From a virus, in IMG/VR virus record IMGVR_UViG_3300042564_002580, positions 32,001 to 96,000 of that record: a DNA stretch of 64,000 nt; one strand, 5' to 3'. Of this stretch, positions 3,436 to 25,905 are shown one piece after another; positions within the stretch are counted from its first letter, which is position 1, and every line of letters starts with the position of its first letter. The notes beneath the pieces are model-generated. The model worked only from the letters and a program-made list of their open reading frames with translations, made no database searches and was not told the origin of the DNA. The position numbers were made by a program, and so were the translations under genes.

Positions 3436-4224
3436 ATGGTTAATGCTAATCCTGAAATACTAGAATTAAATTTAAAGCTTCTTTCAAGCAAAAAATTTGA
3501 AAAGCTTTCAGATGAGGTCTATATATATAGAAACTTTTTATCTAAGCAAGAATGTATAGATTTAATAAATGAAGCTTGCCAAGATTCAGAATCACACGAT
3601 TCTGAATTTACATCTAAATCTTTAGATAGATATAGACAAAGATTGCATGAAGAATTTAACTACGAATCTCAAAGTAATATTTCTGAAAACAATTTAGGCG
3701 GCCCCTGGGATAAGCTTTTGTGTCGACAGTTAGATAAAAATAATAATTCTAATTATACATTTTCTCCTCACGTAGATATATATAATTTTTTTGTAGATTA
3801 CCACAATGCAGCTGTTCTAAAACCACTAAAAAACTATACAAAAGTAACCCTTGGCCACATGTCGTTTATAATTTATTTTTCAGAAGACTTTGAGGGTGGG
3901 GAAATTCATTATCCAGAGTATGGCATTACATACAAGCCTAAAACTGGAGACATGATTCTTCATAATGTAGAAGTTGTTCATTCTGTAAAAAAAATATTGT
4001 CTGGGAAAAGATGGTCTTATCAGTCAAGTCTTAGTTCTATTAAATACATACCAGATTTAATGTACGCAAAATTTATAGAAGATAATGATTATTACATTCA
4101 ATGTACAAATGAAAAAAATATAGAAAACAATCCTATATTTTTTTATAGGTCTGATCAAGAACCAATTTTTAATGAAAGGCTAAAGCCGTTTGCTAGTGTT
4201 AAAGGAAATTGGGGCGGAAATTAA
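3436..4224 (+). CDS. 2OG-Fe(II) oxygenase, prolyl-4-hydroxylase-like
   Basis: IYRNFLSKQEC, HVD, YFSEDFEGGEI, KPKTGD, distal H, GKRWS. Confidence 0.85.
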   Translation: MVNANPEILELNLKLLSSKKFEKLSDEVYIYRNFLSKQECIDLINEACQDSESHDSEFTSKSLDRYRQRLHEEFNYESQSNISENNLGGPWDKLLCRQLDKNNNSNYTFSPHVDIYNFFVDYHNAAVLKPLKNYTKVTLGHMSFIIYFSEDFEGGEIHYPEYGITYKPKTGDMILHNVEVVHSVKKILSGKRWSYQSSLSSIKYIPDLMYAKFIEDNDYYIQCTNEKNIENNPIFFYRSDQEPIFNERLKPFASVKGNWGGN

Positions 4225-9163: not shown

Positions 9164-9511
9164 ATGGCAGGACAAAAGAATTTCGAAGTAGATCAAAATG
9201 CAACATTTAGTTTTATAGTAGAATATAAAGACGAAAATGACAATGCGATTGATCTTACTGGTGCATCTGCAAAGATGCAGGTGCGTGATACAAAAGGCGG
9301 CAGCAAATTAGCCGTTACACTAACATCACCATCTGGCGGAATTACAATTGATGGACCTAATGGTAAATTAACTGTAAGAATGACACCAACACAAACAAGT
9401 AAAATCTTTTATCCGAAATCATCTTATGATGTTATGGTTGTAGATTCTAATGGGAATAAAATAAAGCTCCTTGAAGGGTTTATGACCCTAAATAGATCGG
9501 TAACTATTTAA
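9164..9511 (+). CDS. Virion structural protein, BppU-N/Ig-like adaptor
   Basis: IDLTGASAKMQVR...YDV...KLLEG pattern typical of phage adaptor domains. Confidence 0.6.
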   Translation: MAGQKNFEVDQNATFSFIVEYKDENDNAIDLTGASAKMQVRDTKGGSKLAVTLTSPSGGITIDGPNGKLTVRMTPTQTSKIFYPKSSYDVMVVDSNGNKIKLLEGFMTLNRSVTI

Positions 9512-9951
9512 TGACTGAATCCGTAGTTGTTCGAGAGCAAATAAATAAAGTAGTAATTTCTTCTCCAGGTCCACAAGGACCAAGAGGAAGAACCATTCTA
9601 AATGGAAATGGAGACCCAGCAGCAAATTTGGGTCTTACTGGAGATTTTTACTTTGATATGCTTTCAGCTGCATTTCACGGACCAAAGCTTTCTGATTTAA
9701 ATTGGTCAGGAGCAAGCAAAATATTTTTAACAAATAATACACTAGCGTATCCTTGGGAATTAACCCAAGTTACTGGTCCTTTATCTGGAGTGTATTCTGT
9801 TGTTATTAATCATGGACTAGGATATCAACCAAACGTAACAGTTAAGTCTAGTGCAGGCGATATTTTGGAAACTGGAATAGACTACAATAGTACTAATCAA
9901 ATAACACTGACTATGGCTCAACCATTTTCAGGGACAGCATACCTGTCATAA
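9511..9951 (+). CDS. Virion protein with short collagen-like GPQGPRG
   Basis: PGPQGPRG, GDFYFD, INHGLG.QPNV motifs. Confidence 0.65.
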   Translation: MTESVVVREQINKVVISSPGPQGPRGRTILNGNGDPAANLGLTGDFYFDMLSAAFHGPKLSDLNWSGASKIFLTNNTLAYPWELTQVTGPLSGVYSVVINHGLGYQPNVTVKSSAGDILETGIDYNSTNQITLTMAQPFSGTAYLS

Positions 9952-9962
9952 GGAGATAGCAA

Positions 9963-11030
9963 ATGGCAAGAAAATTTTTAGTTAGCGTTGATCTCAACAA
10001 GAATGAGTTGCTCAATGCTAGAATTCAAAACTTAGGCGCAGCGCCTTCAAATCCAGTATCTGGTCAAATATACTACAATACTGGCACAAATATTCTTTAC
10101 TTCTATAATGGAACAGAGTGGACACCCGCATCTGGCTCTACAGAAGTTATTCAAGACATCATTGGCTCATCCGTATTAGGCGGTACCGCTCTTACAGCTA
10201 CCTATAACGATGCAGCAGGAACAACAACATTAAAGTTAAACGATACATCAGTAACCGCTGGATCTTACGGTTCATCTTCATCTATACCTTCATTTACAGT
10301 TGACGCACAAGGTAGACTAACATCTGCAGCCGAAACAAGTATTCCAGATCCAGTAATTACACTTTCAGGAGATGTAACTGGTTCTGCAACAATGACCAAT
10401 TTGGGTGATGTTACAATATCAACTACAATTGAGCCAAACTCAGTTGCCCTCGGAACTGATACAACTGGAAGCTATGTTTCAACAATTGCAGGAACATCTG
10501 GAGAAATTACAGTATCAGGCTCTGGATCAGAATCCGCAGCAGTAACTATTGGATTGCCAGATGATGTATCAATTACTGGTAACTTAAGCATTGGTGGAAA
10601 CCTTGATGTTCAAGGATCTATTAACTCAATAAGCACAACAGAAGTTAATATTGTTGATAATAAAGTAGTTCTTAACACAAACGTAACAGGAGCCCCATTA
10701 GCAGATGCTGGCCTTAAGGTAAACCGTGGAACCTCTGCAGATGTAGAGCTTTTGTGGAACGAAACGGCAGACCAATGGACATTAACAAATGATGGCACAA
10801 ATTATCATGAGATAACAAGAAAATATAAGACTACGCTAAATACTTCAGCAACATCTTATACAGTAACCCACAATTTAGGAACAAAAGACATAGTTATTTC
10901 TATCTACGAAGTTGCAGCACCATATGCAGAGATACTTGCAGATGTTGAGCATACATCAGATTCAGATATAACTATTAAGTTTGCAGTTGCACCAGCATCT
11001 GGAGAATATAGAGTAGTTGTAATAGGATAA
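9963..11030 (+). CDS. Fibre-like virion protein
   Basis: GQIYYNT, TVDAQGRLT, ITLSGDVTGS, VTHNLGT; Gly/Thr/Ser-rich. Confidence 0.7.
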   Translation: MARKFLVSVDLNKNELLNARIQNLGAAPSNPVSGQIYYNTGTNILYFYNGTEWTPASGSTEVIQDIIGSSVLGGTALTATYNDAAGTTTLKLNDTSVTAGSYGSSSSIPSFTVDAQGRLTSAAETSIPDPVITLSGDVTGSATMTNLGDVTISTTIEPNSVALGTDTTGSYVSTIAGTSGEITVSGSGSESAAVTIGLPDDVSITGNLSIGGNLDVQGSINSISTTEVNIVDNKVVLNTNVTGAPLADAGLKVNRGTSADVELLWNETADQWTLTNDGTNYHEITRKYKTTLNTSATSYTVTHNLGTKDIVISIYEVAAPYAEILADVEHTSDSDITIKFAVAPASGEYRVVVIG

Positions 11031-11039
11031 GGATTTCAA

Positions 11040-11417
11040 ATGGCCAAAAAGTTTAAGTCATTATTAAATCTTCTTACACTTGCAGAAGATCCGTTGAGCG
11101 GATCCACTGGAGATGTTTATTTTAATGTAACAAGCAAAAACATTAAAATTTACAACGGTGCAGTGTGGGTTGACTTAACTCCTGGCACTACTGACCCCGC
11201 TCCATTCTATATGCATACACATTCCTATGATGGAAATGTACATACAGTTAACCTTCAAGAAACAATAAACTTTTCTGAAGATATTAACAATAATGCTGGC
11301 GTATTAGAAACTAATCCTGCTATAATTGGTCTAGACGGTGGTACTCCAACATCATCGTATGCAAACGCAAGTTACACAGAATTAACACTGTTGGACGGAG
11401 GACAAATTGGCAACTAG
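11040..11417 (+). CDS. Virion protein with C-terminal LDGG motifs
   Basis: N-terminus resembles the 9963 gene (MAxKF...GDVYFN...KIYNG..W). Confidence 0.65.
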   Translation: MAKKFKSLLNLLTLAEDPLSGSTGDVYFNVTSKNIKIYNGAVWVDLTPGTTDPAPFYMHTHSYDGNVHTVNLQETINFSEDINNNAGVLETNPAIIGLDGGTPTSSYANASYTELTLLDGGQIGN

Positions 11418-11958
11418 CTACCCAACATCAAAAGATAATCTTACAAATCCTGCCGCAACTGAATCAATGGAAGGCCATGCAGACCTGCACGGTAATGTCA
11501 ATGATGCAATTGAGGCAATTGAGAACAAGCTGGGTGTAGACGGATCAACGGATGTAAACTCAATAGATTATAAAGTAAGTCAGCTTCAAGCAAACCTATC
11601 TACTTTAGATGCAGAAAATGCTTCAGAGCTACTAGGTTTGGACGGAAACAATGATCTTACTATAGACGGTATAGAAAATAAAACAACTATAGATTCATTC
11701 TCAAAGACAGTATACAAGACAGTTAGATATACATTACAGATTGATAAATCTGTTGGAAACTTAACTCACACATCAACAATTGTCTTGCTTAACGATGGAA
11801 CTGATGTTCATATCTCAGAGTCAGATATAGTATCAAACACAGATTTATCTTTAGCTACAGTTACTTTTGAAGAAAATAGCGGTATAATAAGTCTATGCGT
11901 AACACCTGTTTCAGGATCAATAAAAGTAAGATATTTTAGAACAGCATTAAAAGCATAA
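11407..11958 (+). CDS. Virion structural protein
   Basis: HADLH..VNDAIEAIENKLG N-terminus; C-terminal beta domain resembling that of 11986. Confidence 0.65.
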   Translation: MATSYPTSKDNLTNPAATESMEGHADLHGNVNDAIEAIENKLGVDGSTDVNSIDYKVSQLQANLSTLDAENASELLGLDGNNDLTIDGIENKTTIDSFSKTVYKTVRYTLQIDKSVGNLTHTSTIVLLNDGTDVHISESDIVSNTDLSLATVTFEENSGIISLCVTPVSGSIKVRYFRTALKA

Positions 11959-11985
11959 AAAAAGCAGTAAAAGGGAGTCATATCA

Positions 11986-13584
11986 ATGGCAACAGTAAAC
12001 AAGAATTTTAGAATTAAAAATGGTCTTATCGTTGAGGGTGGAACAGCTACCGTTAACGGTTTTGGTGTATTAACCAAGGCACAGGCAGACCAAGACTACA
12101 TTGTTGGTCTTATTGGTGGTACAGCAACTTCAGCTAACACAGTAAATACTGTAGTTAAGCGTGATGCATCAGGCAATTTTGCCGCAGGAACAATTACTGC
12201 TACATTTGTTGGTAACCTTACTGGTGATGTAACAGGTACAGTTTCAAGTCTTTCAAATCATGACACAGCGGATCTTGCAGAAAATGCAGCAAACAAATAT
12301 TTTACAGATGCTCGTGCACTTGCAGCAACAGCCGCAGCATACGATGCAGCAGGCTCAGCAGCAGCAGCACAGTCAGCAGCAACTACAGCAGCAGCAACAG
12401 ATGCAACAACTAAGGTAGCAGCAGAAGCAGCACTTAGAGTATCAGGCGACGCAGCTTCAGTATCAACTGCAGCAGCAGATGCTACTACAAAAGCTAACGC
12501 AGCTCAAGCAGCAGCAGAAGCCACAGCAGCATCAGATGCAACATCTAAGGCTAACGCAGCTCAAGCAGCAGCTATCTCAGCAGCAGCAGCAGATGCTACT
12601 ACAAAAGCCAACGCAGCACAGTCTGCAGCAGCATCAGATGCTACTACAAAAGCCAACGCCGCTCAAGCAGCAGCCGAAGCTACAGCAGCAGCAGCGCTTT
12701 CATCTGCAATCTCAACAGAGGTTTCAAACCGTAACACAGCAATTTCAACTGCAGTAGATTCATTAGTGGATGGCGCACCATCACTTCTTAACACATTAAA
12801 TGAATTAGCAGCAGCAATCAATGATGATGCTAATTACACAACAACTATAACAACAGCCCTTGGAACAAAGGCTAACTCAGCTCAAGTAACAACAGATATT
12901 GCGGCAGCAGTTTCAACAGCTGCATCAGATGCTACTACAAAAGCCAACGCAGCTCAAGCAGCAGCTATCTCAACAGCCGCATCAGATGCTACTACAAAAG
13001 CTAACGCAGCTCAAGCAGCAGCAGAAGCAACAGCAGCAGCAGCGCTTTCAGCACACAGCGCAGATACAACAAACATTCACGGAATTGCAGATACTTCACT
13101 TCTAGCAACTACAGCAAACGTAGCAACAGCAGTTTCAACAGCCGCATCAGATGCTACATCTAAGGCTAACGCAGCTCAAGCAGCAGCAGAAGCAACAGCA
13201 GCAGCAGCTAATACTGCTCAGCAAAATGGAACTACATCATTTACAGCAATTAATTACAATGATGTTGCTAAGCAGGTCGCAGCAACAACTGGAAACATTG
13301 CGGTGGCAGCAGAAACAACAGCTATTTCATGGGTAGCAGCAGACTACAGAAGCGCTAAGCTTGTAGTTAAAGCAAAGAATGGTGTTCACACCCAGGTTTC
13401 AGACTTGGTTGTAACACTTGATACTGCAAATAACGTAGGAGTTTCTGAATATGGAATTACATATTCAAACGGAACAGAACTAGCAGCAGTAACAGCAGAT
13501 TATTCTGGATCAGATGTAAGAGTCAGAGTAACACCAGCAAACGCTAACACAGAAGTTATTGTTGTTGGAATACTAATTAAATAA
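11986..13584 (+). CDS. Ala-rich coiled-coil fibre protein
   Basis: Repeated DAT(T/S)KANAAQAAA units; LVDGAPSLLNTLNELAAA fibre motif; YRSAKL C-terminal domain. Confidence 0.75.
   Translation: MATVNKNFRIKNGLIVEGGTATVNGFGVLTKAQADQDYIVGLIGGTATSANTVNTVVKRDASGNFAAGTITATFVGNLTGDVTGTVSSLSNHDTADLAENAANKYFTDARALAATAAAYDAAGSAAAAQSAATTAAATDATTKVAAEAALRVSGDAASVSTAAADATTKANAAQAAAEATAASDATSKANAAQAAAISAAAADATTKANAAQSAAASDATTKANAAQAAAEATAAAALSSAISTEVSNRNTAISTAVDSLVDGAPSLLNTLNELAAAINDDANYTTTITTALGTKANSAQVTTDIAAAVSTAASDATTKANAAQAAAISTAASDATTKANAAQAAAEATAAAALSAHSADTTNIHGIADTSLLATTANVATAVSTAASDATSKANAAQAAAEATAAAANTAQQNGTTSFTAINYNDVAKQVAATTGNIAVAAETTAISWVAADYRSAKLVVKAKNGVHTQVSDLVVTLDTANNVGVSEYGITYSNGTELAAVTADYSGSDVRVRVTPANANTEVIVVGILIK
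12470..13210 (+). repeat. Intragenic imperfect repeats encoding DAT(T/S)KANAAQ
   Basis: gatgctactacaaaagc(t/c)aacgc recurs about seven times. Confidence 0.85.
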
Positions 13585-13600
13585 TTAAATAAAGGTTTCG

Positions 13601-13623
13601 GGGGGATTCCTTAAAAATCCCCC
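13601..13623 (+). terminator. GC-rich hairpin without U tract (terminator or mRNA stabiliser)
   Basis: GGGGGATT-ccttaaa-AATCCCCC directly after the 13584 stop. Confidence 0.5.
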
Positions 13624-13653
13624 AACAAAAACTTAGGGGATATGTGAACTTAA

Positions 13654-14019
13654 ATGGCAACAGTAGATAAGAATTTTAAAGTAAAGAATGGGCTCAATGT
13701 CGCAGGAACTGCCACATTTGGGTCTAATGTTGTTTTAGGAGAAACACCCCTTAGATTTGATACAGTAACAAATAAATTACAGCTTCAAATAAATGGTGCT
13801 TGGGTCCCAATTGCACTTAATTCTGAGATCCCAGACACTTCACAAGATATTAGCTTTATGGATATTGGTTTAGCTATTGATTATAATGGGCAGCCAATAT
13901 ATACAGTACAGGCAAATGGAGTCACTCCAACAGGAATAAATAAGTTTATCGATGGAGGATCACCATCCTCTACAGATAATGATGTTTCAATGGTTTTTGA
14001 TTCAGGTGCTCTAGCTTAA
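13654..14019 (+). CDS. Short virion protein sharing the MATVxKNFxxKNGL N-terminus, with IDGG motif
   Basis: N-terminus near-identical to the 11986 gene. Confidence 0.7.
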   Translation: MATVDKNFKVKNGLNVAGTATFGSNVVLGETPLRFDTVTNKLQLQINGAWVPIALNSEIPDTSQDISFMDIGLAIDYNGQPIYTVQANGVTPTGINKFIDGGSPSSTDNDVSMVFDSGALA

Positions 14020-14071
14020 AGTAATAAATGATATAATAAGCAGTATAAATAAAATATAAAGGGGTAATAAA

Positions 14072-16276
14072 ATGGCAACAGTAAGAATTCAAGTACGAAG
14101 AGGAACCGCTTCACAATGGACCTCAGCAAATCCAACTTTGGCAGCAGGAGAGCTCGGCGTTGAGTCAGATACTAACCTCTTTAAGTTTGGTAACGGTTCA
14201 ACAGCATGGACAGCCCTTGCTTACGCAAATAACTCAGATGTAGCGATTGGTGAAATTTCCCAAGACGCAATTAATACAGCACTTACAATGGGTGCGGGTC
14301 TTACAAAGACATATAATGATGGTTCAAATACTATCACAATTACAGTAGATTCAAATGTAGTTGCGCTTAAGTCATATGTTGACAGCGCATTAACAGCTCA
14401 CGAAACTGATACAACTTCTGTTCATGGAATTCAAAATACAGCAGATCTAGTTTATTTGACAGGTGCTCAAACACTTACTGGAAAAACTTTAACAAGTGTT
14501 GTTTTAGATGGTACTCCTGTAGCACCAACACAAGCAGCTAATGATAATTCTACTAAAATTGCAACAACAGCATACGTTCAAACAGAGCTTGCAGATCTTA
14601 TAGGAGCAGCACCAGCATTGCTAGACACATTAAGCGAGCTATCAGATGCACTTGGCGATAATGAAAACTATGCAGCAGCAATGACAGCAACAATAACTGG
14701 TATTAATAATACAGTTGCAACAAAACTTGCTACAGCAGATTTTACAGCACATGTTATTGATACAACAGATGTTCATGGAATTTCAAATACAGCAAACTTA
14801 GTTTATACATCAGATTCAAGACTTTCTGATACTAGAACCCCTACAGCTGGATCTGTTGTTGCAGCGTCCATGGCCGTAGATTCTGTTGCAACAACAAGCT
14901 TGCTTGATTCTTCTGTAACTACTGCAAAAATTGCAGCAGTTTCAGTCACAGAAGCTAAACTTGCTGACGACTCAGTAACAGCAGCAAAGATAGCAGCAGG
15001 AGCGGTTGGAACTTCAGAGATTGCAGACCTAGCAGTTACTGCTTCTAAAATAGCAGCAGATGCAATTGGATCAACTCATATTGCCACATCTGCAGTAGGA
15101 ACTTCAGAGATTGCAGACGATGCAGTAACAGCAGCAAAGATAGCAGCAGGAGCGGTTGGAACTTCAGAGATTGCAGACGATGCAGTAACATCAGCAAAGA
15201 TTTTTGCAGGATCCGTTGTAACTGCCTCAATTAATAATTCAGCCGTTACAGAAGATAAAATTGCAGCACTTGCAGTTACTGAAGGTAAGATAGCAGCAGG
15301 AGCAGTAACATCTGGCAAAATTGCAGATGGAGCAATTGTAAATGCAGATATTAACGCAGCAGCAGAAATTGCAACATCAAAGATAGCAGGCCTTGACACA
15401 GCACTTGGCCTACTGGCACCTCTTGCTTCGCCAACATTTACTGGTACAGTAACTCTTCCAGCAGGAACAGTAACAACAGGAATGATACTTGATGGAACAA
15501 TTACAGATGCAGATATAAATGCAACTGCTGGAATTGCACAGTCTAAGATCTCAGGATTAACTACAGATCTTTCAAATAAGCTAGATTCAACAACAGCTGC
15601 TTCAACTTACGCACCACTTGCTTCACCAAATCTTACAGGAACTCCTACAGCTCCTACAGCAGCAGCAGGAACTTCTACAACACAAGTTGCAACTACAGCA
15701 TTTGTTGGAACAGCAGTAGCAGATCTTGTTGCATCAGCACCAGCAGCACTTAATACTCTTAATGAGTTAGCAACTGCACTTGGAAATGATGCTTCGTTCT
15801 CAACAACAGTTACAAATGCAATTGCACTAAAGTCACCACTAGCTTCTCCAACATTTACTGGTACATTAACTGCACCAGCAATAACAGCAACTGGTTTAGT
15901 AACTGCTTCAGCTTCAGGTATAGCATTTACAGATGGAACACAAACAAAGGCAGGAGTTCCATCATTGACTGTAATTGGAACTACAATTTCTGCAGCATAC
16001 AACCTGTCAACAGGCGGACTTGCCCTGAGAGATCAGTTAATACCAATTTCAGGTACACAGGTAATTACAGTACCAACAAATGCAACAACAGCATATCCAA
16101 TTGGAACTTCAATAAGCTTCTACCAGGCATCTGGAACTGGAGCAAGTTTTGCCTTCGCAAGCGGAGTCACACCTCTTGCAACACCAGGACAGACACTAAG
16201 AGCTCTATCATCTTCTGCAACACTAACAAAGGTTGCAACAGATACTTGGTTACTTGCTGGAGATCTAAAAGCTTAA
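14072..16276 (+). CDS. Fibre protein with Mtd_N-like N-terminus and 10-residue VTxxKIA repeats
   Basis: RIQVRRGTASQW..NPTLAAGELGVESDT..FKFGNG; AVTAAKIAAG/AVGTSEIADD repeats; two AP..L.TL.EL..ALG motifs; C-terminal W.L.GDL. Confidence 0.8.
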   Translation: MATVRIQVRRGTASQWTSANPTLAAGELGVESDTNLFKFGNGSTAWTALAYANNSDVAIGEISQDAINTALTMGAGLTKTYNDGSNTITITVDSNVVALKSYVDSALTAHETDTTSVHGIQNTADLVYLTGAQTLTGKTLTSVVLDGTPVAPTQAANDNSTKIATTAYVQTELADLIGAAPALLDTLSELSDALGDNENYAAAMTATITGINNTVATKLATADFTAHVIDTTDVHGISNTANLVYTSDSRLSDTRTPTAGSVVAASMAVDSVATTSLLDSSVTTAKIAAVSVTEAKLADDSVTAAKIAAGAVGTSEIADLAVTASKIAADAIGSTHIATSAVGTSEIADDAVTAAKIAAGAVGTSEIADDAVTSAKIFAGSVVTASINNSAVTEDKIAALAVTEGKIAAGAVTSGKIADGAIVNADINAAAEIATSKIAGLDTALGLLAPLASPTFTGTVTLPAGTVTTGMILDGTITDADINATAGIAQSKISGLTTDLSNKLDSTTAASTYAPLASPNLTGTPTAPTAAAGTSTTQVATTAFVGTAVADLVASAPAALNTLNELATALGNDASFSTTVTNAIALKSPLASPTFTGTLTAPAITATGLVTASASGIAFTDGTQTKAGVPSLTVIGTTISAAYNLSTGGLALRDQLIPISGTQVITVPTNATTAYPIGTSISFYQASGTGASFAFASGVTPLATPGQTLRALSSSATLTKVATDTWLLAGDLKA

Positions 16277-16304: not shown

Positions 16305-17231
16305 ATGTCAAAACATATAGGTAGAAAGTCATCTGCTCAAGATAACTTTGTGGGACCAAATCCAGTAACTGGAGTAACCGCAACAGATTATTTAAACGGA
16401 GTAAACAACGCTAGAGCGTTTAATGACGGAGCAATTACAGTTTCATGGTCCGCTCCAGTAGCAGGAAATACACCTACTGGATATAAAGTTTATGAAGCTG
16501 GAGTTCTACGGGCAACTGTTGCTTATGGTACAAATACAGCATTAATAACTGGCTTAGGCTCAAATACTTCACATACATATGCAGTTTCGTCTTATGACTC
16601 CTATTTAGACAATTCTTCAAATGCAGTTGCTGCACCAGCAGCAACAGCAACTACTGTTCCACAAGCACCAAATACCCCAACAGCAACAGCTGGTGTAGAT
16701 TTGGATACAATTGCATGGACACTTAATGCAAATGGTGGAAAAACAGTAATTGATATATATATTGAATCAAACGAAGCGACTCCAAAAAATAAAACAGTTA
16801 CAACCGCATCAAATGGAAGCACAACTATTGCAAATGAAGCAAATACTGCACAAGCTTACAGAGTACGAGCAAGAAATGCAAATGGCTCTAGTTCATTTTC
16901 AGCATTTTCTAACTCAGTTACGACGCTACCGCCTTCATTCTTTAGCCCACCGTTCTTCCCACCTGGCTTCTTCAGCCCACCGTTCTTCCCACCTGGCTTC
17001 TTCAGCCCACCGTTCTTCCCACCTGGCTTCTTTAGCCCACCGTTCTTCCCACCTGGCTTCTTCAGTCCACCGTTCTTCCCGCCAGTGTTCTTCAGCCCAC
17101 CGTTCTTTCCACCTGGCTTCTTTAGCCCACCGTTCTTCCCACCTGGCTTCTTCAGCCCACCGTTCTTCCCACCTGGCTTCTTTTCTCCACCAGCATTTGG
17201 TGGCGGCCAATTTTCTTTGAGGGCGTACTAA
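16305..17231 (+). CDS. Fibronectin-III virion protein with C-terminal (SPPFFPPGFF)x8 tail and GGG
   Basis: Two FN3-like domains (VSWSAP..GYKV..ITGL..YAVS; IAWT..YRVRARNANG); Pro/Phe repeat. Confidence 0.8.
   Translation: MSKHIGRKSSAQDNFVGPNPVTGVTATDYLNGVNNARAFNDGAITVSWSAPVAGNTPTGYKVYEAGVLRATVAYGTNTALITGLGSNTSHTYAVSSYDSYLDNSSNAVAAPAATATTVPQAPNTPTATAGVDLDTIAWTLNANGGKTVIDIYIESNEATPKNKTVTTASNGSTTIANEANTAQAYRVRARNANGSSSFSAFSNSVTTLPPSFFSPPFFPPGFFSPPFFPPGFFSPPFFPPGFFSPPFFPPGFFSPPFFPPVFFSPPFFPPGFFSPPFFPPGFFSPPFFPPGFFSPPAFGGGQFSLRAY
16941..17180 (+). repeat. Eight tandem 30-bp coding repeats
   Basis: tt(t/c)agcccaccgttcttcccacctggcttc x8; unit 5 has G to V. Confidence 0.95.
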
Positions 17232-17232
17232 T

Positions 17233-17637
17233 ATGACTAAACATTATGCGATCTTATCATTAAATAAAGTTATAGATAAAATTGATGTTGAAAATGTAGA
17301 TGAAGATCTAAATAGAATAGATAGATTTTCAGAACTGTTTGCATCTGAGTTTTTCTGTAAAGATGTAACCGAAAGCAAAAAAGTTAAATTAGATTCAGTA
17401 TGGGATGGAAATTCTTTCTCAGAGTTTGATGTCGAAAGAAATGAAGTTTCTCCATACTCCGTAGCTCTTATTTCAAACAACACTGTAAAAGCAGTTATTA
17501 GAGTATATACTTTAAAAAGACATAATCTATACAAAGAAGCAGAAGTTAATGGAATTTCTGCAGTTGAAGTACCAGAGTCAGACATTGAGCAGGTAAAAAC
17601 TGGAATGTCATGGGACGGTACATCTTTTACAGAATAG
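17233..17637 (+). CDS. Two-repeat protein with WDGxSF motifs; fibre-assembly-chaperone-like
   Basis: Halves end in SVWDGNSF and MSWDGTSF; starts just after the fibre gene stop. Confidence 0.55.
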   Translation: MTKHYAILSLNKVIDKIDVENVDEDLNRIDRFSELFASEFFCKDVTESKKVKLDSVWDGNSFSEFDVERNEVSPYSVALISNNTVKAVIRVYTLKRHNLYKEAEVNGISAVEVPESDIEQVKTGMSWDGTSFTE

Positions 17638-17649
17638 GAAGTTAGTTCT

Positions 17650-18345
17650 TTGAGTAAAGATATTTTAAAAAATGAGATATCTCCTGGTCTATGGGTTTAT
17701 AAAAATCAAATAGATAAAAATATCATCAATGACGTAGAAGATCTACTGTCTAAATATGATGATGATTTTGAGTGGCGAGAAGCAACAGTAGGATATGATG
17801 TAAAAGTACCTTCATATAGAGACTGTGTAGATTTTAAAATTCAAAAGCAGGAAATGCCCAACATGCCAGAAAGCAGAAAAGATTTAAATAAAATATGGCA
17901 AAAAGCATACGATATGCAGATAGATGCAGTTAAAGATTACTGCAAACTTTATAACATTGATATGCAATTCTGGGAAGCAATGAACTTTATTAAATATGGA
18001 GAAGGCCAGCATTTCCAAGAGCATTCAGATCATGGATTTTCTTACATAGCAACAGTTTCATTGGTTTCATATCCAAACGATGACTATGAAGGAGGGGAAT
18101 TATATTTCCCTAAACTTAATTTAACCATAACTCCAGAGGCAGGAGATATAGTTATTTTTCCTTCAACTTATTTGTTTTCACACAGAGCAATGCCAGTCAA
18201 ATCAGGAGTTAAGTATTCAATAGTTACAATGCTTGATTACAACGATAACACTCACAATCAGGAGTTTGATCTTCTTAGAATGAAAAGGACTAATTCTGCC
18301 GCTGCAAGAGAAAGTGCAATGAGTGGAAATAATAAAAGCTTATAA
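17650..18345 (+). CDS. 2OG-Fe(II) oxygenase, P4H-like
   Basis: FIKY..GQHFQEHSD, NDDYEGGEL, FPS...SHRAMPVKSGVKYS. Confidence 0.9.
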   Translation: MSKDILKNEISPGLWVYKNQIDKNIINDVEDLLSKYDDDFEWREATVGYDVKVPSYRDCVDFKIQKQEMPNMPESRKDLNKIWQKAYDMQIDAVKDYCKLYNIDMQFWEAMNFIKYGEGQHFQEHSDHGFSYIATVSLVSYPNDDYEGGELYFPKLNLTITPEAGDIVIFPSTYLFSHRAMPVKSGVKYSIVTMLDYNDNTHNQEFDLLRMKRTNSAAARESAMSGNNKSL

Positions 18346-19039
18346 AACCAAAGAAGGCTTTGCAGAAATAAAGACTCTTCCAGTTAAAAGAGACTGGATG
18401 GATAGCACTTGGCAAAAGCATGCCTATCATTGCTTTCCAGTAACTTTAACAAATACATTAGGGTGGTATTTAAGTTTTCCAGAAGATATAACTTTTATTT
18501 GGGACGGTATTTCAAATTTTGATCCATCCCATGTCAAGATTTTAAAAGGTGACAAATACGCTTATGCTGGAAGAGCAAACGGAACAATAAGTTTTAATAC
18601 AGGTATTAAATTTAAAACCGAAAAAAATGTAACATTGCTGACCATGCCCGCTCCTAATTTTTTTATTGATGGTGCATCTCCTTTTACAACATTAATAAGC
18701 ACATCATTCTTTAGAGCAGATCTTCCAGTAGCTTGGATGATCACATCTCCAAATAAAGAAATTACAATTCCAGCTGGTCACCCAATATGCTCAATAATAC
18801 CAATCAGTCTTGGAGATTTAAATAATTCAGAAATACAAATAGGACCAGAACCAAAAGAACAAGAAGTTTCACAAAAAGAACTATATGAATATTCTATGGC
18901 AGTTCATGAAATAAACAAAAAGTTTAGCTGGTCCGATTTTTACAGAAATGGTGTTGACCATAAGGGAAAAGCCTTGGGTGATCATGAAATAAAAGCTTTA
19001 AAGCTAAAGGTTATAGAGTATAGCCCTAGTGATATTTGA
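18323..19039 (+). CDS. Conserved protein resembling DUF6065
   Basis: KRDWMD..HAYHCFP...N.LGW...WDG signature, recalled family pattern. Confidence 0.6.
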   Translation: MEIIKAYKTKEGFAEIKTLPVKRDWMDSTWQKHAYHCFPVTLTNTLGWYLSFPEDITFIWDGISNFDPSHVKILKGDKYAYAGRANGTISFNTGIKFKTEKNVTLLTMPAPNFFIDGASPFTTLISTSFFRADLPVAWMITSPNKEITIPAGHPICSIIPISLGDLNNSEIQIGPEPKEQEVSQKELYEYSMAVHEINKKFSWSDFYRNGVDHKGKALGDHEIKALKLKVIEYSPSDI

Positions 19040-19063
19040 TATAGAATATGGTATATTGTACTT

Positions 19064-19810
19064 ATGGAAATAGTTAATCAAGGAATTATGGGGGGCGGAA
19101 GAGCTCCTATATCAATTACACCATCAGGTTTTTTTGGGGACTCAATAGATAATATTGTTGAGCTAGAAAACTTTATAACAGAAGAAGAACAGAAGAGGCT
19201 TATTAACTTTGCTCTAACTAATAAAGTTTGGGATAAAACAGAGACCCATATTGATGAAGACGGTTTAGTGCTTTACGATGCAAATATTTGGGAAGATAGA
19301 GTTTGTACTGCAGCCTCACTAAAAAAATCTGATCCAGCAATAATTGATTTGCTATGGGACATGATTGATAGGCTAAAAATAGAAGTAGATAAATTTTTTA
19401 ATGTTAACGTTCAAGCAACTGGCCCAGCAATTGTTAGATGGCCAGTCGGAGCAAGACAAGAGCCTCATGCAGATAAAGAGTTTCACACAGGAGAAGAAGA
19501 AGGAAGACCAAATGATTTTCCTTACTATGACATAGCTGGACTATTCTACTTTGACGATGATTACGAAGGTGGAGAGCTGTATTTTCCAAGACACGGTATT
19601 GAATTTAAGCCAAAGCCTAGGGCAGCTTATTTTTTCCCAGGAGATAAGTATTATGCTCATGGAGTTAGACCAGTAAAGTCTGGAAACAGATTTACCGCTC
19701 CATTTTTTTGGACCATTGTAGAGCACACTGGAGAAAAACAACCTCCGAAAGATTATTCAGACCAGTTTAAATCGCCGTCATGGCAAAAGCTTTATGGAGA
19801 CAGGGGTTAA
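19064..19810 (+). CDS. 2OG-Fe(II) oxygenase, P4H-like
   Basis: VRWPVG..QEPHAD, DDDYEGGEL, YAHGVRPVKSGNRFT; leaderless TGgTATATT-6-ATG. Confidence 0.9.
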   Translation: MEIVNQGIMGGGRAPISITPSGFFGDSIDNIVELENFITEEEQKRLINFALTNKVWDKTETHIDEDGLVLYDANIWEDRVCTAASLKKSDPAIIDLLWDMIDRLKIEVDKFFNVNVQATGPAIVRWPVGARQEPHADKEFHTGEEEGRPNDFPYYDIAGLFYFDDDYEGGELYFPRHGIEFKPKPRAAYFFPGDKYYAHGVRPVKSGNRFTAPFFWTIVEHTGEKQPPKDYSDQFKSPSWQKLYGDRG

Positions 19811-19813
19811 CAG

Positions 19814-20659
19814 ATGCATAGTTTAAATATAGTTGATGATATAAATTCTTTAGATTGGACAGAGCTGCTTCCAGGTGTAATCCTTTACAGAGGAATGCTA
19901 AAAGATCCAGACCTTGCATATAAGATAATGATGCGCTCAGAGTCTTCTGAACAAAGTAATTTTTTCCAGAACTGGACTCCATGGGCTCAATATGGAACAT
20001 ACACCCAGGCAAAAGATCAGCAAATGATTGAGTCAGCAGAAAAAAATGAAATTTTTGAAGAAGAAAAAGCTTTATACGAAGAGATTGCGACATCTTACGA
20101 TAAAGCAATATCACACTATTTTAAGCACACTGGAATTGAAATTCCAGAAGGTGCAAGATATAGTGGTCAGTCATGGTGTAAGTACTTCAATCTAATTGAT
20201 ACATTAAAAAATAAAATGACCATGCAATATCACACTGATTTTATTATTTCTCAGAAGGATATGCCTGGAGAAAAGTTTCACACAACATGTACTTTTTATA
20301 TTAATGACAATTACAATGGCGGAGATATAGAGTTCTTTGTTGAAGGTAAATTTGTAAATCATAAACCGTCTGCTGGAGACCTTCTAGTATTTCCATCAGG
20401 AGAGCCTTTCTATCATGGAGTAAAAACAATACCAGATGGAAATAAGTTCTTCATTAGAAACTTTGTAATGTTTGATTATGATGGCTCAAAAGAGTGGTTA
20501 GCAAATCAAAAAAGATACGGCGCATATAGGTGGGGTAAACAAGAAATTGAAAGAATCGCAAATGAAGACCCAAGAAATATGATCTATATAAGAGATAATG
20601 AAGTTATATCTTATGAAGAAATAATGGGCGTTGACACTGGCGGAGGAATATACAATTGA
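19814..20659 (+). CDS. 2OG-Fe(II) oxygenase, P4H-like
   Basis: MQYHTD, YINDNYNGGDI, FPS..FYHGV...GNKF. Confidence 0.88.
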   Translation: MHSLNIVDDINSLDWTELLPGVILYRGMLKDPDLAYKIMMRSESSEQSNFFQNWTPWAQYGTYTQAKDQQMIESAEKNEIFEEEKALYEEIATSYDKAISHYFKHTGIEIPEGARYSGQSWCKYFNLIDTLKNKMTMQYHTDFIISQKDMPGEKFHTTCTFYINDNYNGGDIEFFVEGKFVNHKPSAGDLLVFPSGEPFYHGVKTIPDGNKFFIRNFVMFDYDGSKEWLANQKRYGAYRWGKQEIERIANEDPRNMIYIRDNEVISYEEIMGVDTGGGIYN

Positions 20660-21435
20660 AACTAATTAAAGTTAGAGATAATGAGCACCCAGTATATTTG
20701 TATGAAGATTTTTTAACTAAAGAAGAATGCGCTGGTATTATTAAAATGTTTAACAATCTTATAAAAAGCGGAGACTTTGAATGGCATCCAATTTCTTTTT
20801 ATGAGTCTTATGCGTATAACATGCCAAACCAACTAACAGATGATAAGAATAAGCTATCTCGATGGTATGCAGATGCTGGATTGCCAGACAACTTCCTAGA
20901 TGACCTAGAAAAAAAGTTTAAAGATGCAGCTCGTGAAATAATCGGAGGAGAAGCTTATAAAATAAGTTTTCATAGTCAAAAATGGATTCCTGGAGCATAT
21001 GCAGCTTTTCACTCAGACAACAGTTATGATGGTGAGCCAAGTGCATTTGAAAGAAGTAGATACGCAGGTTTTCTTTATTTAAACGATGAGTTTGATGGCG
21101 GGGAACTTAATTTTAAAAACTTTGATTTAAGCGTAAAGCCTAAAACAGGAATGTTTGCTATTTTTGACGGCGGTCATGAAAACACTCATGAGGTAACACC
21201 TGTATTTAAAAGCGACAGATATACTGTAGGATCATTTTGGGATGATCGGCCAGAAGAAGATTATCCTCAAGAAACAAGAGACAGGTGGGCTTCAGAAATT
21301 GATGATACAAGAAAGAAACAAAAAGTAGAGCAAGAAGAGTGGAAAGAGATAAGAGATAGCGGAAAAAGAAGAACGCCAGATGGCAGAGAGTATGATGCAG
21401 TTTTAGCAGAAAGCGGAGAAATCCATGGAAATTAG
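20656..21435 (+). CDS. 2OG-Fe(II) oxygenase, P4H-like
   Basis: YEDFLTKEEC, FHSD, YLNDEFDGGEL, HEVTPV..DRYT. Confidence 0.9.
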   Translation: MKLIKVRDNEHPVYLYEDFLTKEECAGIIKMFNNLIKSGDFEWHPISFYESYAYNMPNQLTDDKNKLSRWYADAGLPDNFLDDLEKKFKDAAREIIGGEAYKISFHSQKWIPGAYAAFHSDNSYDGEPSAFERSRYAGFLYLNDEFDGGELNFKNFDLSVKPKTGMFAIFDGGHENTHEVTPVFKSDRYTVGSFWDDRPEEDYPQETRDRWASEIDDTRKKQKVEQEEWKEIRDSGKRRTPDGREYDAVLAESGEIHGN

Positions 21436-22117
21436 AGAAGTTCAGCCAAGGCAAATGTACACTATGTTTGACATTGTGTTTCACGATAGAGGAATAGTTT
21501 ATTTTGAAAATGTAATTAGTTATCCAGAGACCCTGTTAAAAGTTATGGAAGACCTAGATTCTAACCCAAAATCACATAGCGGAATACCTGAATGGAGCAA
21601 GTGGGGGGCAAGCAACGATGATAATCATGGGTATGGAATTCAAAAGTTTATTGATACCTCTAAAAAGCTTATGAACACCGATGATGAGTTTTTAAACAAA
21701 CAAGTTTTGTATGTTGTTAATAGCTTAATCATGGCCCCAGAAATGTGTGCAAAAAGATATGCTGAAATAATGCGTAGAGATGCATCTAGAATCCAAAAAG
21801 TAGATAGCACACCAGAGCAGGTTAAGATGGGCCTAGATTATATTAAGGTTGCTAAATATGACACTGGTAAAGGTATGGGTCCGCATTGTGATGCTGAAGA
21901 TCCGTCTGGTACTGGACAAAATCTAAAGTACTCCCTAGTTTGCTATTTGAATGATGATTACGAAGGTGGAGAAATTTACTTTAAAAATCAAGATATAAAG
22001 ATTAAGCCAAAGGCAGGTAGCCTTGTTCTATTCCCTTCAGTTCATCCATATTTACATGAATCTCTTCCAGTTACAAAAGGAAATAAGATCATGTTTACTA
22101 CTCATTGGATGGTTTAG
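21425..22117 (+). CDS. 2OG-Fe(II) oxygenase, P4H-like
   Basis: KY..GKGMGPHCD, YLNDDYEGGEI, FPS..YLHES.PV..GNK. Confidence 0.9.
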   Translation: MEIREVQPRQMYTMFDIVFHDRGIVYFENVISYPETLLKVMEDLDSNPKSHSGIPEWSKWGASNDDNHGYGIQKFIDTSKKLMNTDDEFLNKQVLYVVNSLIMAPEMCAKRYAEIMRRDASRIQKVDSTPEQVKMGLDYIKVAKYDTGKGMGPHCDAEDPSGTGQNLKYSLVCYLNDDYEGGEIYFKNQDIKIKPKAGSLVLFPSVHPYLHESLPVTKGNKIMFTTHWMV

Positions 22118-23983: not shown

Positions 23984-24328
23984 ATGGATATAAAAAGAAT
24001 TAATGCCCAAATGAAGTCTGGTGAAACTAGGCTTGGAGTCTATGTCTGGGAAATGCCTGACGGAAGATGGGTTGGTGACGAAGACAATAACTTTTTATCT
24101 ATATCATCCATGATTGGAAACAAAGAAAGAATTGCTTTGCTTGCAGCAGCCGTAGCACACTATGGAATTGATGTTGGTCAGCCTAAGTTTATTGAGGGAA
24201 GCCGACAAATTGATGAGGAAGAGTTTGAGTATCAAAAACAAAGATTAAGATGGGGTCTAACTCCAGATCCACTAGACATCGGTGTTCACAAAGAAGAAAT
24301 GGCTAGACTAAATGGTGGTAAAAAATGA
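23984..24328 (+). CDS. Hypothetical protein preceding portal
   Basis: ORF track; overlaps the portal start (ATGA). Confidence 0.75.
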   Translation: MDIKRINAQMKSGETRLGVYVWEMPDGRWVGDEDNNFLSISSMIGNKERIALLAAAVAHYGIDVGQPKFIEGSRQIDEEEFEYQKQRLRWGLTPDPLDIGVHKEEMARLNGGKK

Positions 24329-25905
24329 TTGAGTATGACGAAGACACAGTTCAGGATAATGTAGAGATATCCAATGTTGCAGATTGGATGAGATTTAACA
24401 ATCCCACAACACAAAAATCTGATGACTTGTTTGAAATAGACGCTGAAGAGATATTAAAGCTTTCAGGACTCGGTGCTTCATTTAGAAGAAAAGTATCTAG
24501 AGATCTACAAAAAGCGTTTACTGGTAAAGATGGATCTGTAAGCCAGCAACTTCAACACCAACAGGCAGTTAGTGGCTATGCCACATTTGATCTAATTCAA
24601 CCAGAATATAATTTAGATTATCTTTCAACAATTTATGAGATTTCGCCTTACAACTATGCAGCAATAAATGCAAAGGTTGCTAACATTGTAGGTCTAGGAT
24701 TTGACTTTATTGAATCTAAAAAAACTACAGACACACTTGAAGATATAGAAGATGAAAAACAGCTAGAAAGAGCACGTAAGAAGCTAAATAGAATTAAGCA
24801 AGACTTACATCGCTGGCTAGAAGATTGCAATGAAGATGAAACATTTAAAGAAACGCTTATAAAGTTTTACACCGACATAGAGGCTACTGGTAATGGCTAT
24901 CTGGAGGTCGGCAGAACAACGACTGGCAAGATAGGGTACATCGGACACATCCCTTCAAAGACAATGCGTGTAAGACGCCTTAGAGACGGTTTTATACAGC
25001 TTCTTTATGGCAAGGCTGTTTTCTTCAGAAATTTTGGAGACACAGAAACAGTAAATCCAATCGCTGGTCAAGAAGACAGACCAAACGAAATTATTCATTT
25101 AAAGAAGTACACCCCAAAGAATAATTATTACGGAATCCCAGACATTATTGCTGCACAAAATGCCATGGCTGGTAATGAATTTGCTGGTAAGTATAACCTA
25201 GATTACTTTGAAAATAAAGCGGTTCCAAGATATATTATTACCGTAAAAGGCGCAAAGCTTTCTGCAGAATCAGAAAGAAAGCTACTTGAATTCTTCCAGG
25301 TAGGCTTAAGAGGAAAGAACCACAGATCTCTGTATATTCCACTTCCTCCAGATTCACCAGATTCAAAAACTGAATTTAAGATGGAGCCAATTGAGGCAGG
25401 ATCTCAGGAATCTTCATTTAATATATATCGTCAATCAAATAGAGACGAAATCCTAATGGCTCACAGAGTCCCAATTAATAAAATTGGTACTCCAGCAGGT
25501 ATTAATTTAGCTGCTGCTAGAGATGCGGATAAGACATTTAAAGAGCAGGTTTGTCGTCCAGCCCAAGAAAACCTAGAGAAGAAATTAAATAAGATAATCC
25601 AAGAAATGACGGATGCCCTAGAACTTAAATTTAATGAATTAAGTTTGACGGATGCTGACACCCAATCAAAGATAGATGAAAGATATCTTAGATTCCAGGT
25701 AATAACTCCAAATGAAATTAGAGTAAGAATGGGAATGGTTCCAAGAGAAGGCGGAGATGTCCCAGTAGATCTTGCAGCCCAAGCAGCTGAAATTAAAGCC
25801 CAAGCAACCCAAAGCAGAACTCGTGACCAAGAAAGATCGTCTAATTCTCCAGATAAATCTGGGGAGGGCAGAAATGCAAAAGGAGATGGAAGACAAGTCA
25901 ACTAG
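24325..25905 (+). CDS. Portal protein
   Basis: ATGNGYLEV, EIIHLK..YYGIP, YFENKAVP, AHRVP, ITPNEIR motifs; size and position. Confidence 0.92.
   Translation: MIEYDEDTVQDNVEISNVADWMRFNNPTTQKSDDLFEIDAEEILKLSGLGASFRRKVSRDLQKAFTGKDGSVSQQLQHQQAVSGYATFDLIQPEYNLDYLSTIYEISPYNYAAINAKVANIVGLGFDFIESKKTTDTLEDIEDEKQLERARKKLNRIKQDLHRWLEDCNEDETFKETLIKFYTDIEATGNGYLEVGRTTTGKIGYIGHIPSKTMRVRRLRDGFIQLLYGKAVFFRNFGDTETVNPIAGQEDRPNEIIHLKKYTPKNNYYGIPDIIAAQNAMAGNEFAGKYNLDYFENKAVPRYIITVKGAKLSAESERKLLEFFQVGLRGKNHRSLYIPLPPDSPDSKTEFKMEPIEAGSQESSFNIYRQSNRDEILMAHRVPINKIGTPAGINLAAARDADKTFKEQVCRPAQENLEKKLNKIIQEMTDALELKFNELSLTDADTQSKIDERYLRFQVITPNEIRVRMGMVPREGGDVPVDLAAQAAEIKAQATQSRTRDQERSSNSPDKSGEGRNAKGDGRQVN

Follow-up and report, generated by a model that had tools for sequence, protein, structure and literature searches.

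A Phe/Pro-repeat protein and an adjoining cassette of five P4H-type oxygenases in an uncultured phage: a candidate substrate beside its possible tailoring enzymes

Why does a tailed phage keep five oxygenases of the prolyl 4-hydroxylase (P4H) type in one row behind a protein that ends in a repetitive Phe/Pro tract, and what might these enzymes act on? The question is raised by a 5.8-kb stretch (16305-22117) of the IMG/VR virus record IMGVR_UViG_3300042564_002580, which comprises 117 kb and is 98% complete according to CheckV. We analyzed a part of this record, a window of 64,000 nucleotides (positions 32,001 to 96,000). Positions given below refer to the window, those preceded by G000 refer to the whole record, and L-numbers designate loci of relatives. 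An earlier note had read the stretch as a substrate followed by its tailoring enzymes. The intact enzymes, the selected tract, and the linkage of tract and cassette speak for this reading, but two of its elements, the label of a ribosomally synthesized and post-translationally modified peptide (RiPP) and a separate promoter for the gene at 19064, did not hold up. The feature itself, tract plus cassette, is real, conserved, and widespread. It is plausible that the tract is the substrate, and we assign a probability of roughly 45% to the proposal that the cassette hydroxylates prolines in the x-Pro-Pro motifs of this candidate during virion morphogenesis.

The Phe/Pro tract and the oxygenase cassette

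The stretch contains the following features, the first of them taken from the list of open reading frames (ORFs).

16305-17231, + strand: repeat protein, 308 aa
16944-17183, + strand: eight 30-bp units encoding SPPFFPPGFF, with SPPFFPPVFF in unit 5
17233-17637, + strand: WDGxSF protein, 134 aa, motifs at residues 57 and 127; starts one base past the repeat gene
17650-18345, + strand: oxygenase 1, 231 aa; PF13640 51.2 bits; H125-x-D127, H178, K188
18323-19039, + strand: DUF6065 protein, 238 aa; PF19541 111.5 bits vs. 26.6, profile positions 2-231 of 236
19064-19810, + strand: oxygenase 2, 248 aa; PF13640 29.5 bits; H135-A-D137, H199, R209
19814-20659, + strand: oxygenase 3, 281 aa; PF13640 32.3 bits; H140-T-D142, H201, K211
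20656-21435, + strand: oxygenase 4, 259 aa; PF13640 40.0 bits; H119-S-D121, H178, R188
21425-22117, + strand: oxygenase 5, 230 aa; PF13640 56.4 bits; H154-x-D156, H211

The repeat protein consists of a short N-terminal segment, two fibronectin type III (FnIII) domains (approximately residues 20-207), the Phe/Pro tract (approximately residues 208-297), and the tail GGGQFSLRAY. Tandem Repeats Finder returned a single array at 16938-17182 with a period of 30, 8.2 copies, and 92% matches. Eight units followed by GGG are thus present as the earlier note had described, one of them being the variant unit 5. LPPSFF precedes the units, SPPAFGGGQFSLRAY and the stop codon come after them, and the protein stops 15 residues past the last full unit. 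Compared with the commonest unit, nine base differences occur, eight of which are silent third-position changes and one a second-position change replacing G by V. If the three codon positions were equally likely to vary, at least eight of nine differences would fall on third positions with P ~0.001 by our own arithmetic, a value that is only rough because three TTT variants may share descent. Two further frames are open across the array, 16750-17220 on the + strand and 16935-17210 on the - strand; of the three, only that of 16305 accounts for the excess of third-position changes. Moreover, the FF and PP pairs are kept across 46 unique variants from relatives, in which the FnIII part is down to 34% identity. 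Judged from these codon and residue patterns, the tract is under selection as a peptide, which agrees with the earlier argument from almost exclusively synonymous variation.

Structure prediction with AlphaFold2 yielded two beta-sandwiches with a predicted local distance difference test score (pLDDT) of 83-95 over residues ~20-207. From residue 210 to the end, the pLDDT dropped to 38-59 and the model showed no secondary structure. The best Foldseek matches of the folded part were tandem FnIII structures, for example titin A84-A86 (E 4e-10). The Pfam fn3 model scored the window protein below its threshold (20.1 vs. 25 bits), and six orthologues exceeded the cut-off with 31-46 bits. The protein had been called the last fibre gene product; its gene does follow the fibre genes, but the product is itself a tandem-FnIII protein. 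As the tract is predicted to be disordered, it should be accessible. It is the only Phe/Pro-rich stretch in the genome. One other Pro-rich stretch was seen, an acidic repeat of the TPEPSPEP type at the start of the record (G000 64-430), which lies outside the window. With the tract region as query, 5.8 billion proteins were searched; the search covered proteins of 169-539 aa, scored the 8000 candidates that shared most words, and gave 27 matches, all of them unnamed metagenome proteins and most with an fn3 domain. Neither the 5.8-kb stretch as DNA nor the repeat protein had a match in the annotated phage collection, from which records close to the window were possibly left out.

The seven genes from 17233 to 22117 all lie on the + strand and are separated by -23 to +24 nt, as expected for the co-oriented and mostly abutting row described before. 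A scan of the + strand revealed no terminator-like site between 16305 and 22010, with terminator matches at chance level (9 vs. 8.8). The promoter formerly ascribed to the gene at 19064 corresponds to a sigma-70-like site at 19029-19057 that agrees with the consensus in 9 of 12 positions; with 42 sites of this quality in the region, compared with 39.3 ± 7.3 in shuffled sequences, it does not rise above chance level. All five oxygenases scored 29.5-56.4 bits against PF13640 (2OG-FeII_Oxy_3) and thereby exceeded the curated cut-off of 27 bits. The iron-binding triad, formed by the HxD motif and the distal His, is invariant (≥97%) in 62-67 unique orthologues per oxygenase (62 for oxygenase 1). 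The basic residue for binding of the 2-oxoglutarate (2OG) C5 carboxylate, expected approximately 10 residues past the distal His, is likewise invariant in oxygenases 1-4 (K188, R209, K211, and R188, respectively). In oxygenase 5, no basic residue reaches ≥97% among the orthologues, and Lys residues follow H211 in the window copy.

Searches against solved structures, which covered oxygenases 1 and 5, gave the P4H of Bacillus anthracis as the best match of oxygenase 1 (E 2.1e-7). Oxygenase 5 matched the same enzyme with E 4.9e-6 and the P4H of Paramecium bursaria chlorella virus 1 (PBCV-1; 5c5t) with E 1.3e-3. On the strength of these profiles and motifs, the five proteins are P4H-type 2OG/Fe(II) oxygenases whose active sites look intact. 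Each of them has its own orthologous lineage in related phages, which indicates that the paralogues are old and have been maintained separately, as opposed to having arisen by recent duplication. Oxygenase 2 is the most conserved product of the cassette, with 115 invariant residues in 65 unique orthologues; its identity is 72-96% (best 80 of 304 relatives) where that of the portals is 54-95%, and in L023 the values are 77% for oxygenase 2 vs. 54% for the portal. Oxygenase 5 is the least conserved of the five, with orthologues down to 38-43% identity. A complex prediction that combined oxygenase 1, Fe(II), and repeat-protein residues 208-257, run without controls, scored 0.00 vs. a mark of 0.32 and carries no weight either way.

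The DUF6065 gene starts with GTG, overlaps the end of the oxygenase 1 gene by 23 nt, and is located between the genes for oxygenases 1 and 2. The family assignment of the earlier note was thus correct, but not the position at the end of the row. The model of the protein has a pLDDT of 90.3. Using VIA-align, it was superimposed on the Mycobacterium tuberculosis dUTPase with Z 10.4 and a root-mean-square deviation (rmsd) of 5.0 Å over 127 residues. Altogether 13 chains, nearly all of them dUTPases, were aligned with Z 8.2-10.4 and an rmsd of 2.4-5.6 Å over 101-127 residues; the next unrelated rows had Z <4. Foldseek matched the dUTPase fold with E 1.7e-4, and the identity to dUTPases is 8-16% in the structural alignments. 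According to the model, the DUF6065 protein shares the fold of the dUTPase/dCTP deaminase superfamily, and since it is modelled as a dUTPase-like barrel, it is not a sixth oxygenase. Its gene is always paired with that of oxygenase 1, also in rearranged clusters. No paper mentioning DUF6065 was found in our literature searches.

A nucleotide-enzyme fold within the cassette might suggest an AlkB- or Tet/JBP-like action of the oxygenases on nucleic acid, the more so as the PHROG families "DNA endonuclease" and "DNA endonuclease V" match the oxygenases. These names, however, are labels on the shared double-stranded beta-helix domain, and the top PHROG family is "2OG-Fe(II) oxygenase". The Tet_JBP model scored far under its cut-off (12.5 vs. 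34.9 bits), and the best solved relatives are protein hydroxylases. We consider a role in nucleic acid modification hardly credible.

Tract and cassette in related phages

To follow the linkage, loci of relatives were collected from three sides. When the repeat protein served as anchor, the cassette was located directly downstream in 39 of 42 loci; one locus ends too early, and the other two carry a Pro-poor TPFGF variant of the repeat. When oxygenase 2 served as anchor, we considered the best 80 of 304 relatives in the viral collection. A Phe/Pro tract lies at most 3.5 kb upstream of oxygenase 1 in 57 of these, and 22 are unjudgeable owing to a contig end. The tract is thus present in 57 of 58 judgeable loci, and the remaining one, L057, begins inside the Hint domain that follows the tract in many relatives (see below). 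Three contigs from genome bins in which oxygenase 2 is more distant (54-62% identity) were also matched; two of them have the tract just upstream, and the third starts at oxygenase 1. As third anchor we used a degenerate DNA pattern for FFPPFFPPFF, which depends neither on the FnIII part nor on the enzymes and matched at least 120 loci. Among the 120 matches listed, 77 have oxygenase or DUF6065 genes downstream (median gap 767 bp), 34 are too short, and 9 are without enzymes, which corresponds to enzymes in 77 of 86 judgeable loci. The tract also stays at the 5' edge when the enzyme order differs, as in L151, L157, and L171, where the tract is followed by an oxygenase-2-like gene, a sulfotransferase gene and, further on, oxygenase 1 and DUF6065. 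We conclude that the tract and the cassette occur together in almost all judgeable loci, from either anchor side.

The enzyme-less loci among the matches listed are of several kinds. In L213 and L221, the match is the tract copy that a second protein of the module carries further upstream, L126 is a chance match in a hydrophobic ORF, and L189 has the tract in an open frame with a stop immediately after it. In L132 (4421-7174), L134 (891-3770), L199 (1761-2741), and L228, (FFPP)n forms internal linkers of other large proteins. (YFPP)n tracts likewise occur among the internal linkers or ends of other large phage proteins (L132, L134, L199, L228, L189). The earlier note had named oxygenase clusters that occur equally without the repeat gene as evidence that would speak against its reading. 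Such a pattern was not observed for this cassette, but it does apply to P4H-like arrays in general: the replication module of this very genome contains a three-gene array with no tract nearby.

In all relatives, the tract is composed of FF and PP pairs that are separated by a small residue of varying identity (FFPP, GFFAPP, SFFAPP, VFFTPP, etc.), and its length ranges from 27 to 130 aa across the 46 unique variants. L001 (1120-1863) has two full units and L002 (1146-2069) eight, both proteins being 92% identical to the window repeat protein; this difference is either natural copy-number variation or an assembly collapse. In 31 of the 46 variants, according to BLAST comparisons with four references, a Cys and a C-terminal domain of ~155-170 aa come directly after the tract. 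Its profile matched the bacterial intein-like structure 2lwy best among the solved structures (E 3.4e-6) and inteins thereafter. The Pfam intein and Hint models remained below their cut-offs, and no clear counterpart of the usual block-B His is seen in the alignment. Examples of this Hint domain are located as follows.

L004, 10811-11278: Hint domain behind the tract
L006, 10865-11338: Hint domain behind the tract
L017, 3602-4108: Hint domain behind the tract
L012, 9767-10282: Hint domain behind the TPFGF repeat

As in the Hedgehog-type and bacterial intein-like (BIL) Hint systems, the domain is C-terminal and stands directly after Gly, Lys, or Phe, that is, at the position of an N-terminal self-cleaving module. 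This arrangement suggests self-cleavage at the end of the tract in the Hint-bearing relatives. Unlike these systems, the window repeat protein carries no Hint domain and ends with the tail GGGQFSLRAY. Literature searches on Hint domains in phage fibres gave nothing relevant.

Some relatives encode a second protein of 725-1057 aa with N-terminal xDGxxW repeats, Cys-rich modules, and the same tract at its end; a Hint domain is present in two of the three examples listed here.

L004, 1556-4729: second tract protein
L011, 1252-3723: second tract protein
L028, 2934-5111: second tract protein

Because this protein has a different N-terminal part but ends in the same tract, the latter is a portable module. 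Its recurrence as a C-terminal or internal module on unrelated proteins, together with its extreme hydrophobicity and predicted disorder, would also suit a docking or scaffolding element that recruits the enzymes or tethers the FnIII domains, either to the particle or to a hydrophobic envelope of the host, while the oxygenases act elsewhere. Oxygenase 2 carries an invariant N-terminal S-x-T-P-S-G-F-x-G motif that is similar to the tract unit (PPGFF); it could be a pseudo-substrate or a chance resemblance, and the likeness to a tract unit would also suit docking. A mere docking role nevertheless leaves the retention of five catalytically intact paralogues unexplained, and we regard it as very unlikely.

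The WDGxSF protein, encoded between tract and oxygenase 1, matched no Pfam or PHROG family, and no member of its alignment gave a credible Pfam family. Its orthologues occur only in loci with a Hint-less repeat protein, e.g. in 8 of the 42 repeat-protein-anchored loci. The Atlas leads, tail-fibre assembly proteins with a score of 0.76 and a template modelling (TM) score of 0.35, were weak (<0.9). The protein could be an assembly helper of the repeat protein. Its interpretation as a relic of the Hint domain was rejected (hhalign: 7 aligned columns, E 0.49), and a comparison with the xDGxxW-repeat N-terminus of the second tract protein left a motif resemblance only (12 columns, E 0.12).

Relatives also differ in the enzymes themselves. 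In lineages with a Hint domain of the CIDxDT type, genes for a sulfotransferase-like protein and an Asp/Asn beta-hydroxylase are inserted between the tract gene and oxygenase 1 (L017, 4112-5369; also L022, L031, L039, L057, L074, L097, and others). The beta-hydroxylase was assigned to PF05118 with E 5e-11; the sulfotransferase-like proteins scored at or just under the 22-bit cut-off of PF00685/PF03567. L012 and L013, the loci with the Pro-poor TPFGF repeat and a Hint domain, are without orthologues of oxygenases 1-5, the best matches having 37-41% identity. They contain another beta-hydroxylase, DUF6065-like genes, unknown genes, and two distant PF13640 genes instead. As the Pro-poor repeat goes with different enzymes, repeat type and enzyme set match qualitatively.

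What the cassette may act on

We propose that the repeat protein is a late-expressed protein of the fibre region that displays two FnIII domains and a ~95-residue disordered, very hydrophobic FF/PP tract. The six genes behind the WDGxSF gene would constitute a dedicated protein-tailoring cassette composed of five P4H-type oxygenases and a DUF6065 partner. Hydroxylation of the prolines would result in a hydroxyproline-rich appendage that is less greasy and stiffer, presumably polyproline-II-like, and the different paralogues probably take different positions or hydroxylation sites. We infer the tract as the substrate, proline as the target, the location on the virion, and the effect of hydroxylation on the tract. 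Ser-Pro-Pro and Ala-Pro-Pro resemble motifs that are hydroxylated in the hydroxyproline-rich glycoproteins of plants and algae. The term RiPP-like does not fit this arrangement because the candidate precursor is a folded 308-aa protein with two FnIII domains; no leader/core layout was seen and Pfam revealed no protease gene in the cassette, whereas a recognition element was not searched for.

Several lines of evidence argue for proline hydroxylation of the tract. First, the genome combines intact P4H-type enzymes with a single disordered, accessible tract rich in proline pairs. Second, the linkage of the two survives changes in gene order and reaches distant relatives. Third, relatives insert further protein-modifying enzymes at exactly the junction of tract and oxygenase 1. 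Fourth, the genes are co-oriented, abutting or overlapping, and are placed among late structural genes. The neighbourhood is composed as follows.

6847-8781: class II (B12-dependent type) ribonucleotide reductase, directly upstream of the fibre genes
9164-16276: run of fibre-like genes, including one whose 734-aa product has an Mtd_N domain and matches many tail-fibre PHROGs
16305-22117: repeat gene and cassette, followed by genes for a 587-aa LamG-like protein and the 114-aa protein p114
24325-25905: portal, 55-59% identical to portals of large Streptomyces siphophages; followed by prohead protease and capsid

Repeat gene and cassette thus lie within the late structural block, with the fibre genes on the 5' side and portal, protease, and capsid on the 3' side. 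The host of this uncultured phage probably belongs to the Actinobacteria. This is indicated by a WhiB-family gene outside the window (G000 3568-3741; 47.9 bits) and by the similarity of the portal to those of Streptomyces phages, despite a G+C content of ~37% (range ~32-43%). The three matching genome-bin contigs bear discordant labels (Lishizhenia, Acidimicrobiaceae, and Beijerinckiaceae) and reveal nothing about the host.

The position of the cassette also bears on the idea that the oxygenases are auxiliary metabolic or secondary-metabolite enzymes acting on small molecules, as has been proposed for the dioxygenase arrays of cyanophages. For Synechococcus phage Syn9, Iyer et al. (2010; PMC2938197) list ten tandem dioxygenases and propose that they serve metabolite biosynthesis. 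In line with this idea, the matching PHROG family is categorized as "moron, auxiliary metabolic gene and host takeover", and the closest matches of oxygenase 5 in the phage database are cyanophage oxygenases of unknown role with 26-45% identity. However, the ORF list and Pfam disclosed no halogenase, non-ribosomal peptide synthetase, transporter, or other metabolite gene in the cassette. The cassette is instead located inside the late structural block, fixed beside a repetitive protein, and its best solved relatives are peptidyl-prolyl hydroxylases. An activity on small molecules therefore seems rather unlikely to us.

A further possibility is that the tract gene is an inherited neighbour and that the targets of the cassette are other proteins, for example the nearby fibres, the LamG-like protein, proteins of capsid or tail, or those of the host. 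Known bacterial relatives of P4H also act on single prolines of folded proteins, e.g. EF-Tu, Skp1, and ribosomal proteins. Several observations fit this possibility and weigh against the tract as substrate. The fibre genes, the repeat gene, the cassette, and the genes for the LamG-like protein, p114, and the portal are all syntenic in these phages. With the whole neighbourhood being syntenic, the tract gene does not stand out by its position alone; the loci cannot be counted as independent, and one ancestral arrangement could explain most of the counts. Furthermore, the genome contains eleven PF13640 matches, six of which are encoded outside the cassette at the following positions.

G000 10922-11224: further PF13640 match
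G000 97784-100093: further PF13640 matches
G000 104193-104450: further PF13640 match
53005-53583: further PF13640 match within the window

From reading the translations, three of these genes (337-363 aa) stand in tandem among genes for polymerase, recombinase, single-stranded DNA-binding protein, and nuclease. The others comprise a 195-aa protein encoded before a terminase-like gene, a 192-aa protein encoded after the gene of a 1232-aa tail protein, and the one at G000 10922. Since the genome holds a single Phe/Pro tract, these six have none to act on, and such enzymes must have other roles too.

Conversely, tracts occur without the cassette. L154, a member of the clade (portal 75% identical), has tract and Hint domain followed by the LamG-like protein, p114, and portal, but no cassette. 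No oxygenase gene is present within 3.7-9.7 kb downstream of the tracts of L132, L134, L199, and L228. The records of L132 and L199, which are 31% and 26% complete, respectively, yielded no PF13640 match, and that of L134 yielded six at a distance of ~30 kb. Enzyme number does not scale with the tract either. The earlier note had suggested examining whether repeat and oxygenase set co-vary, but across 32 unique bounded clusters, each with 5-7 oxygenase genes, this number was uncorrelated with tract length, proline fraction, and PP pairs (Spearman rho -0.17 to -0.28, p >0.1). For this sample, we removed duplicates with the same tract and enzyme count, loci not bounded by LamG, p114, or portal, tracts cut by a contig start (including that of the oxygenase-less L154), and loci with the bounding gene >12 kb from the tract. 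In addition, the FF/PP motif stays unchanged where oxygenase 5 has diverged to 38-43% identity. Finally, for PBCV-1, the nearest viral precedent, a review (PMC7019647) reports that hydroxyproline was undetectable in virion proteins and that the role of the viral P4H is unknown.

Other findings are at odds with the modification of other proteins. The tract gene is directly upstream despite altered order and content of the cluster, and also in the contigs with 54-62% identity. A different enzyme set accompanies the Pro-poor TPFGF variant, and the sole other Pro-rich stretch (G000 64-430) is far from the cassette. Taken together, we consider it somewhat unlikely that the enzymes act on other proteins, with the tract gene as a bystander.

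Known systems and implications

A kind of arrangement that is already known, viral or bacterial P4H-type enzymes beside a repetitive candidate substrate, is represented by this cassette. Like PBCV-1, the phage encodes small P4H-type 2OG/Fe(II) oxygenases of its own. Unlike PBCV-1, which has one enzyme and a eukaryotic host, it is a tailed phage with five paralogues and a DUF6065 partner, and the cassette is fixed beside one candidate substrate of a different kind (FF/PP). In the work of Eriksson et al. 1999, the peptide substrates of the PBCV-1 P4H were reportedly repeats encoded by the virus itself. Oxygenases 1 and 5 have the same catalytic core as the B. anthracis P4H (3itq, 5hv0), for which collagen-like Gly-Pro-Pro repeats are the proposed substrates. 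The match spans only this core of ~80-110 residues, and the phage tract is without the Gly-X-Y periodicity.

Operons in which a bacterial hydroxylase and a sulfotransferase accompany a collagen-like or tail-collar protein have been predicted to be enzyme-substrate sets (Iyer et al., 2010; PMC2938197). The dioxygenase row beside a repetitive non-enzymatic protein resembles these operons, and the relatives with a sulfotransferase-like gene and an Asp/Asn beta-hydroxylase gene in the row match their layout. Tandem dioxygenase arrays of cyanophages, assigned to metabolite synthesis, are on record in the same source; unlike our cassette, they were not tied to a repeat protein there. Literature searches gave no report on phage prolyl hydroxylation of structural proteins; the gene-neighbourhood supplement of PMC2938197 lay outside their coverage and may bear on this point.

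A wider proposal goes further. A large clade of freshwater phages, probably infecting Actinobacteria, might form a hydroxyproline-rich, extensin-like polymer on its particle, in which dedicated P4H paralogues would hydroxylate the portable tract at several positions and some lineages would add sulfation or beta-hydroxylation. In the Hint lineages, the tract would be set free as a reactive thioester for covalent, Hedgehog-style transfer to another virion component or the host envelope. We consider this polymer unlikely. If it existed, the 2OG oxygenases of aquatic phages that are called auxiliary metabolic would at least partly be virion-tailoring enzymes.

Among the genes of aquatic phages that lack an explanation, those for 2OG/Fe(II) oxygenases rank with the commonest, and as a rule they are classed as metabolic passengers. 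A set of five such enzymes, fixed beside one simple, conserved, and accessible tract, turns the question of their function into one that can be tested at the bench. The system is widespread, with 304 stretches of the viral collection encoding relatives of oxygenase 2 and >120 stretches bearing the tract pattern. If the tract is indeed the target, enzymatic hydroxylation of prolines in a structural protein would have its first example in a phage, as far as our literature searches show, and Phe-flanked Pro-Pro would be a new kind of substrate.

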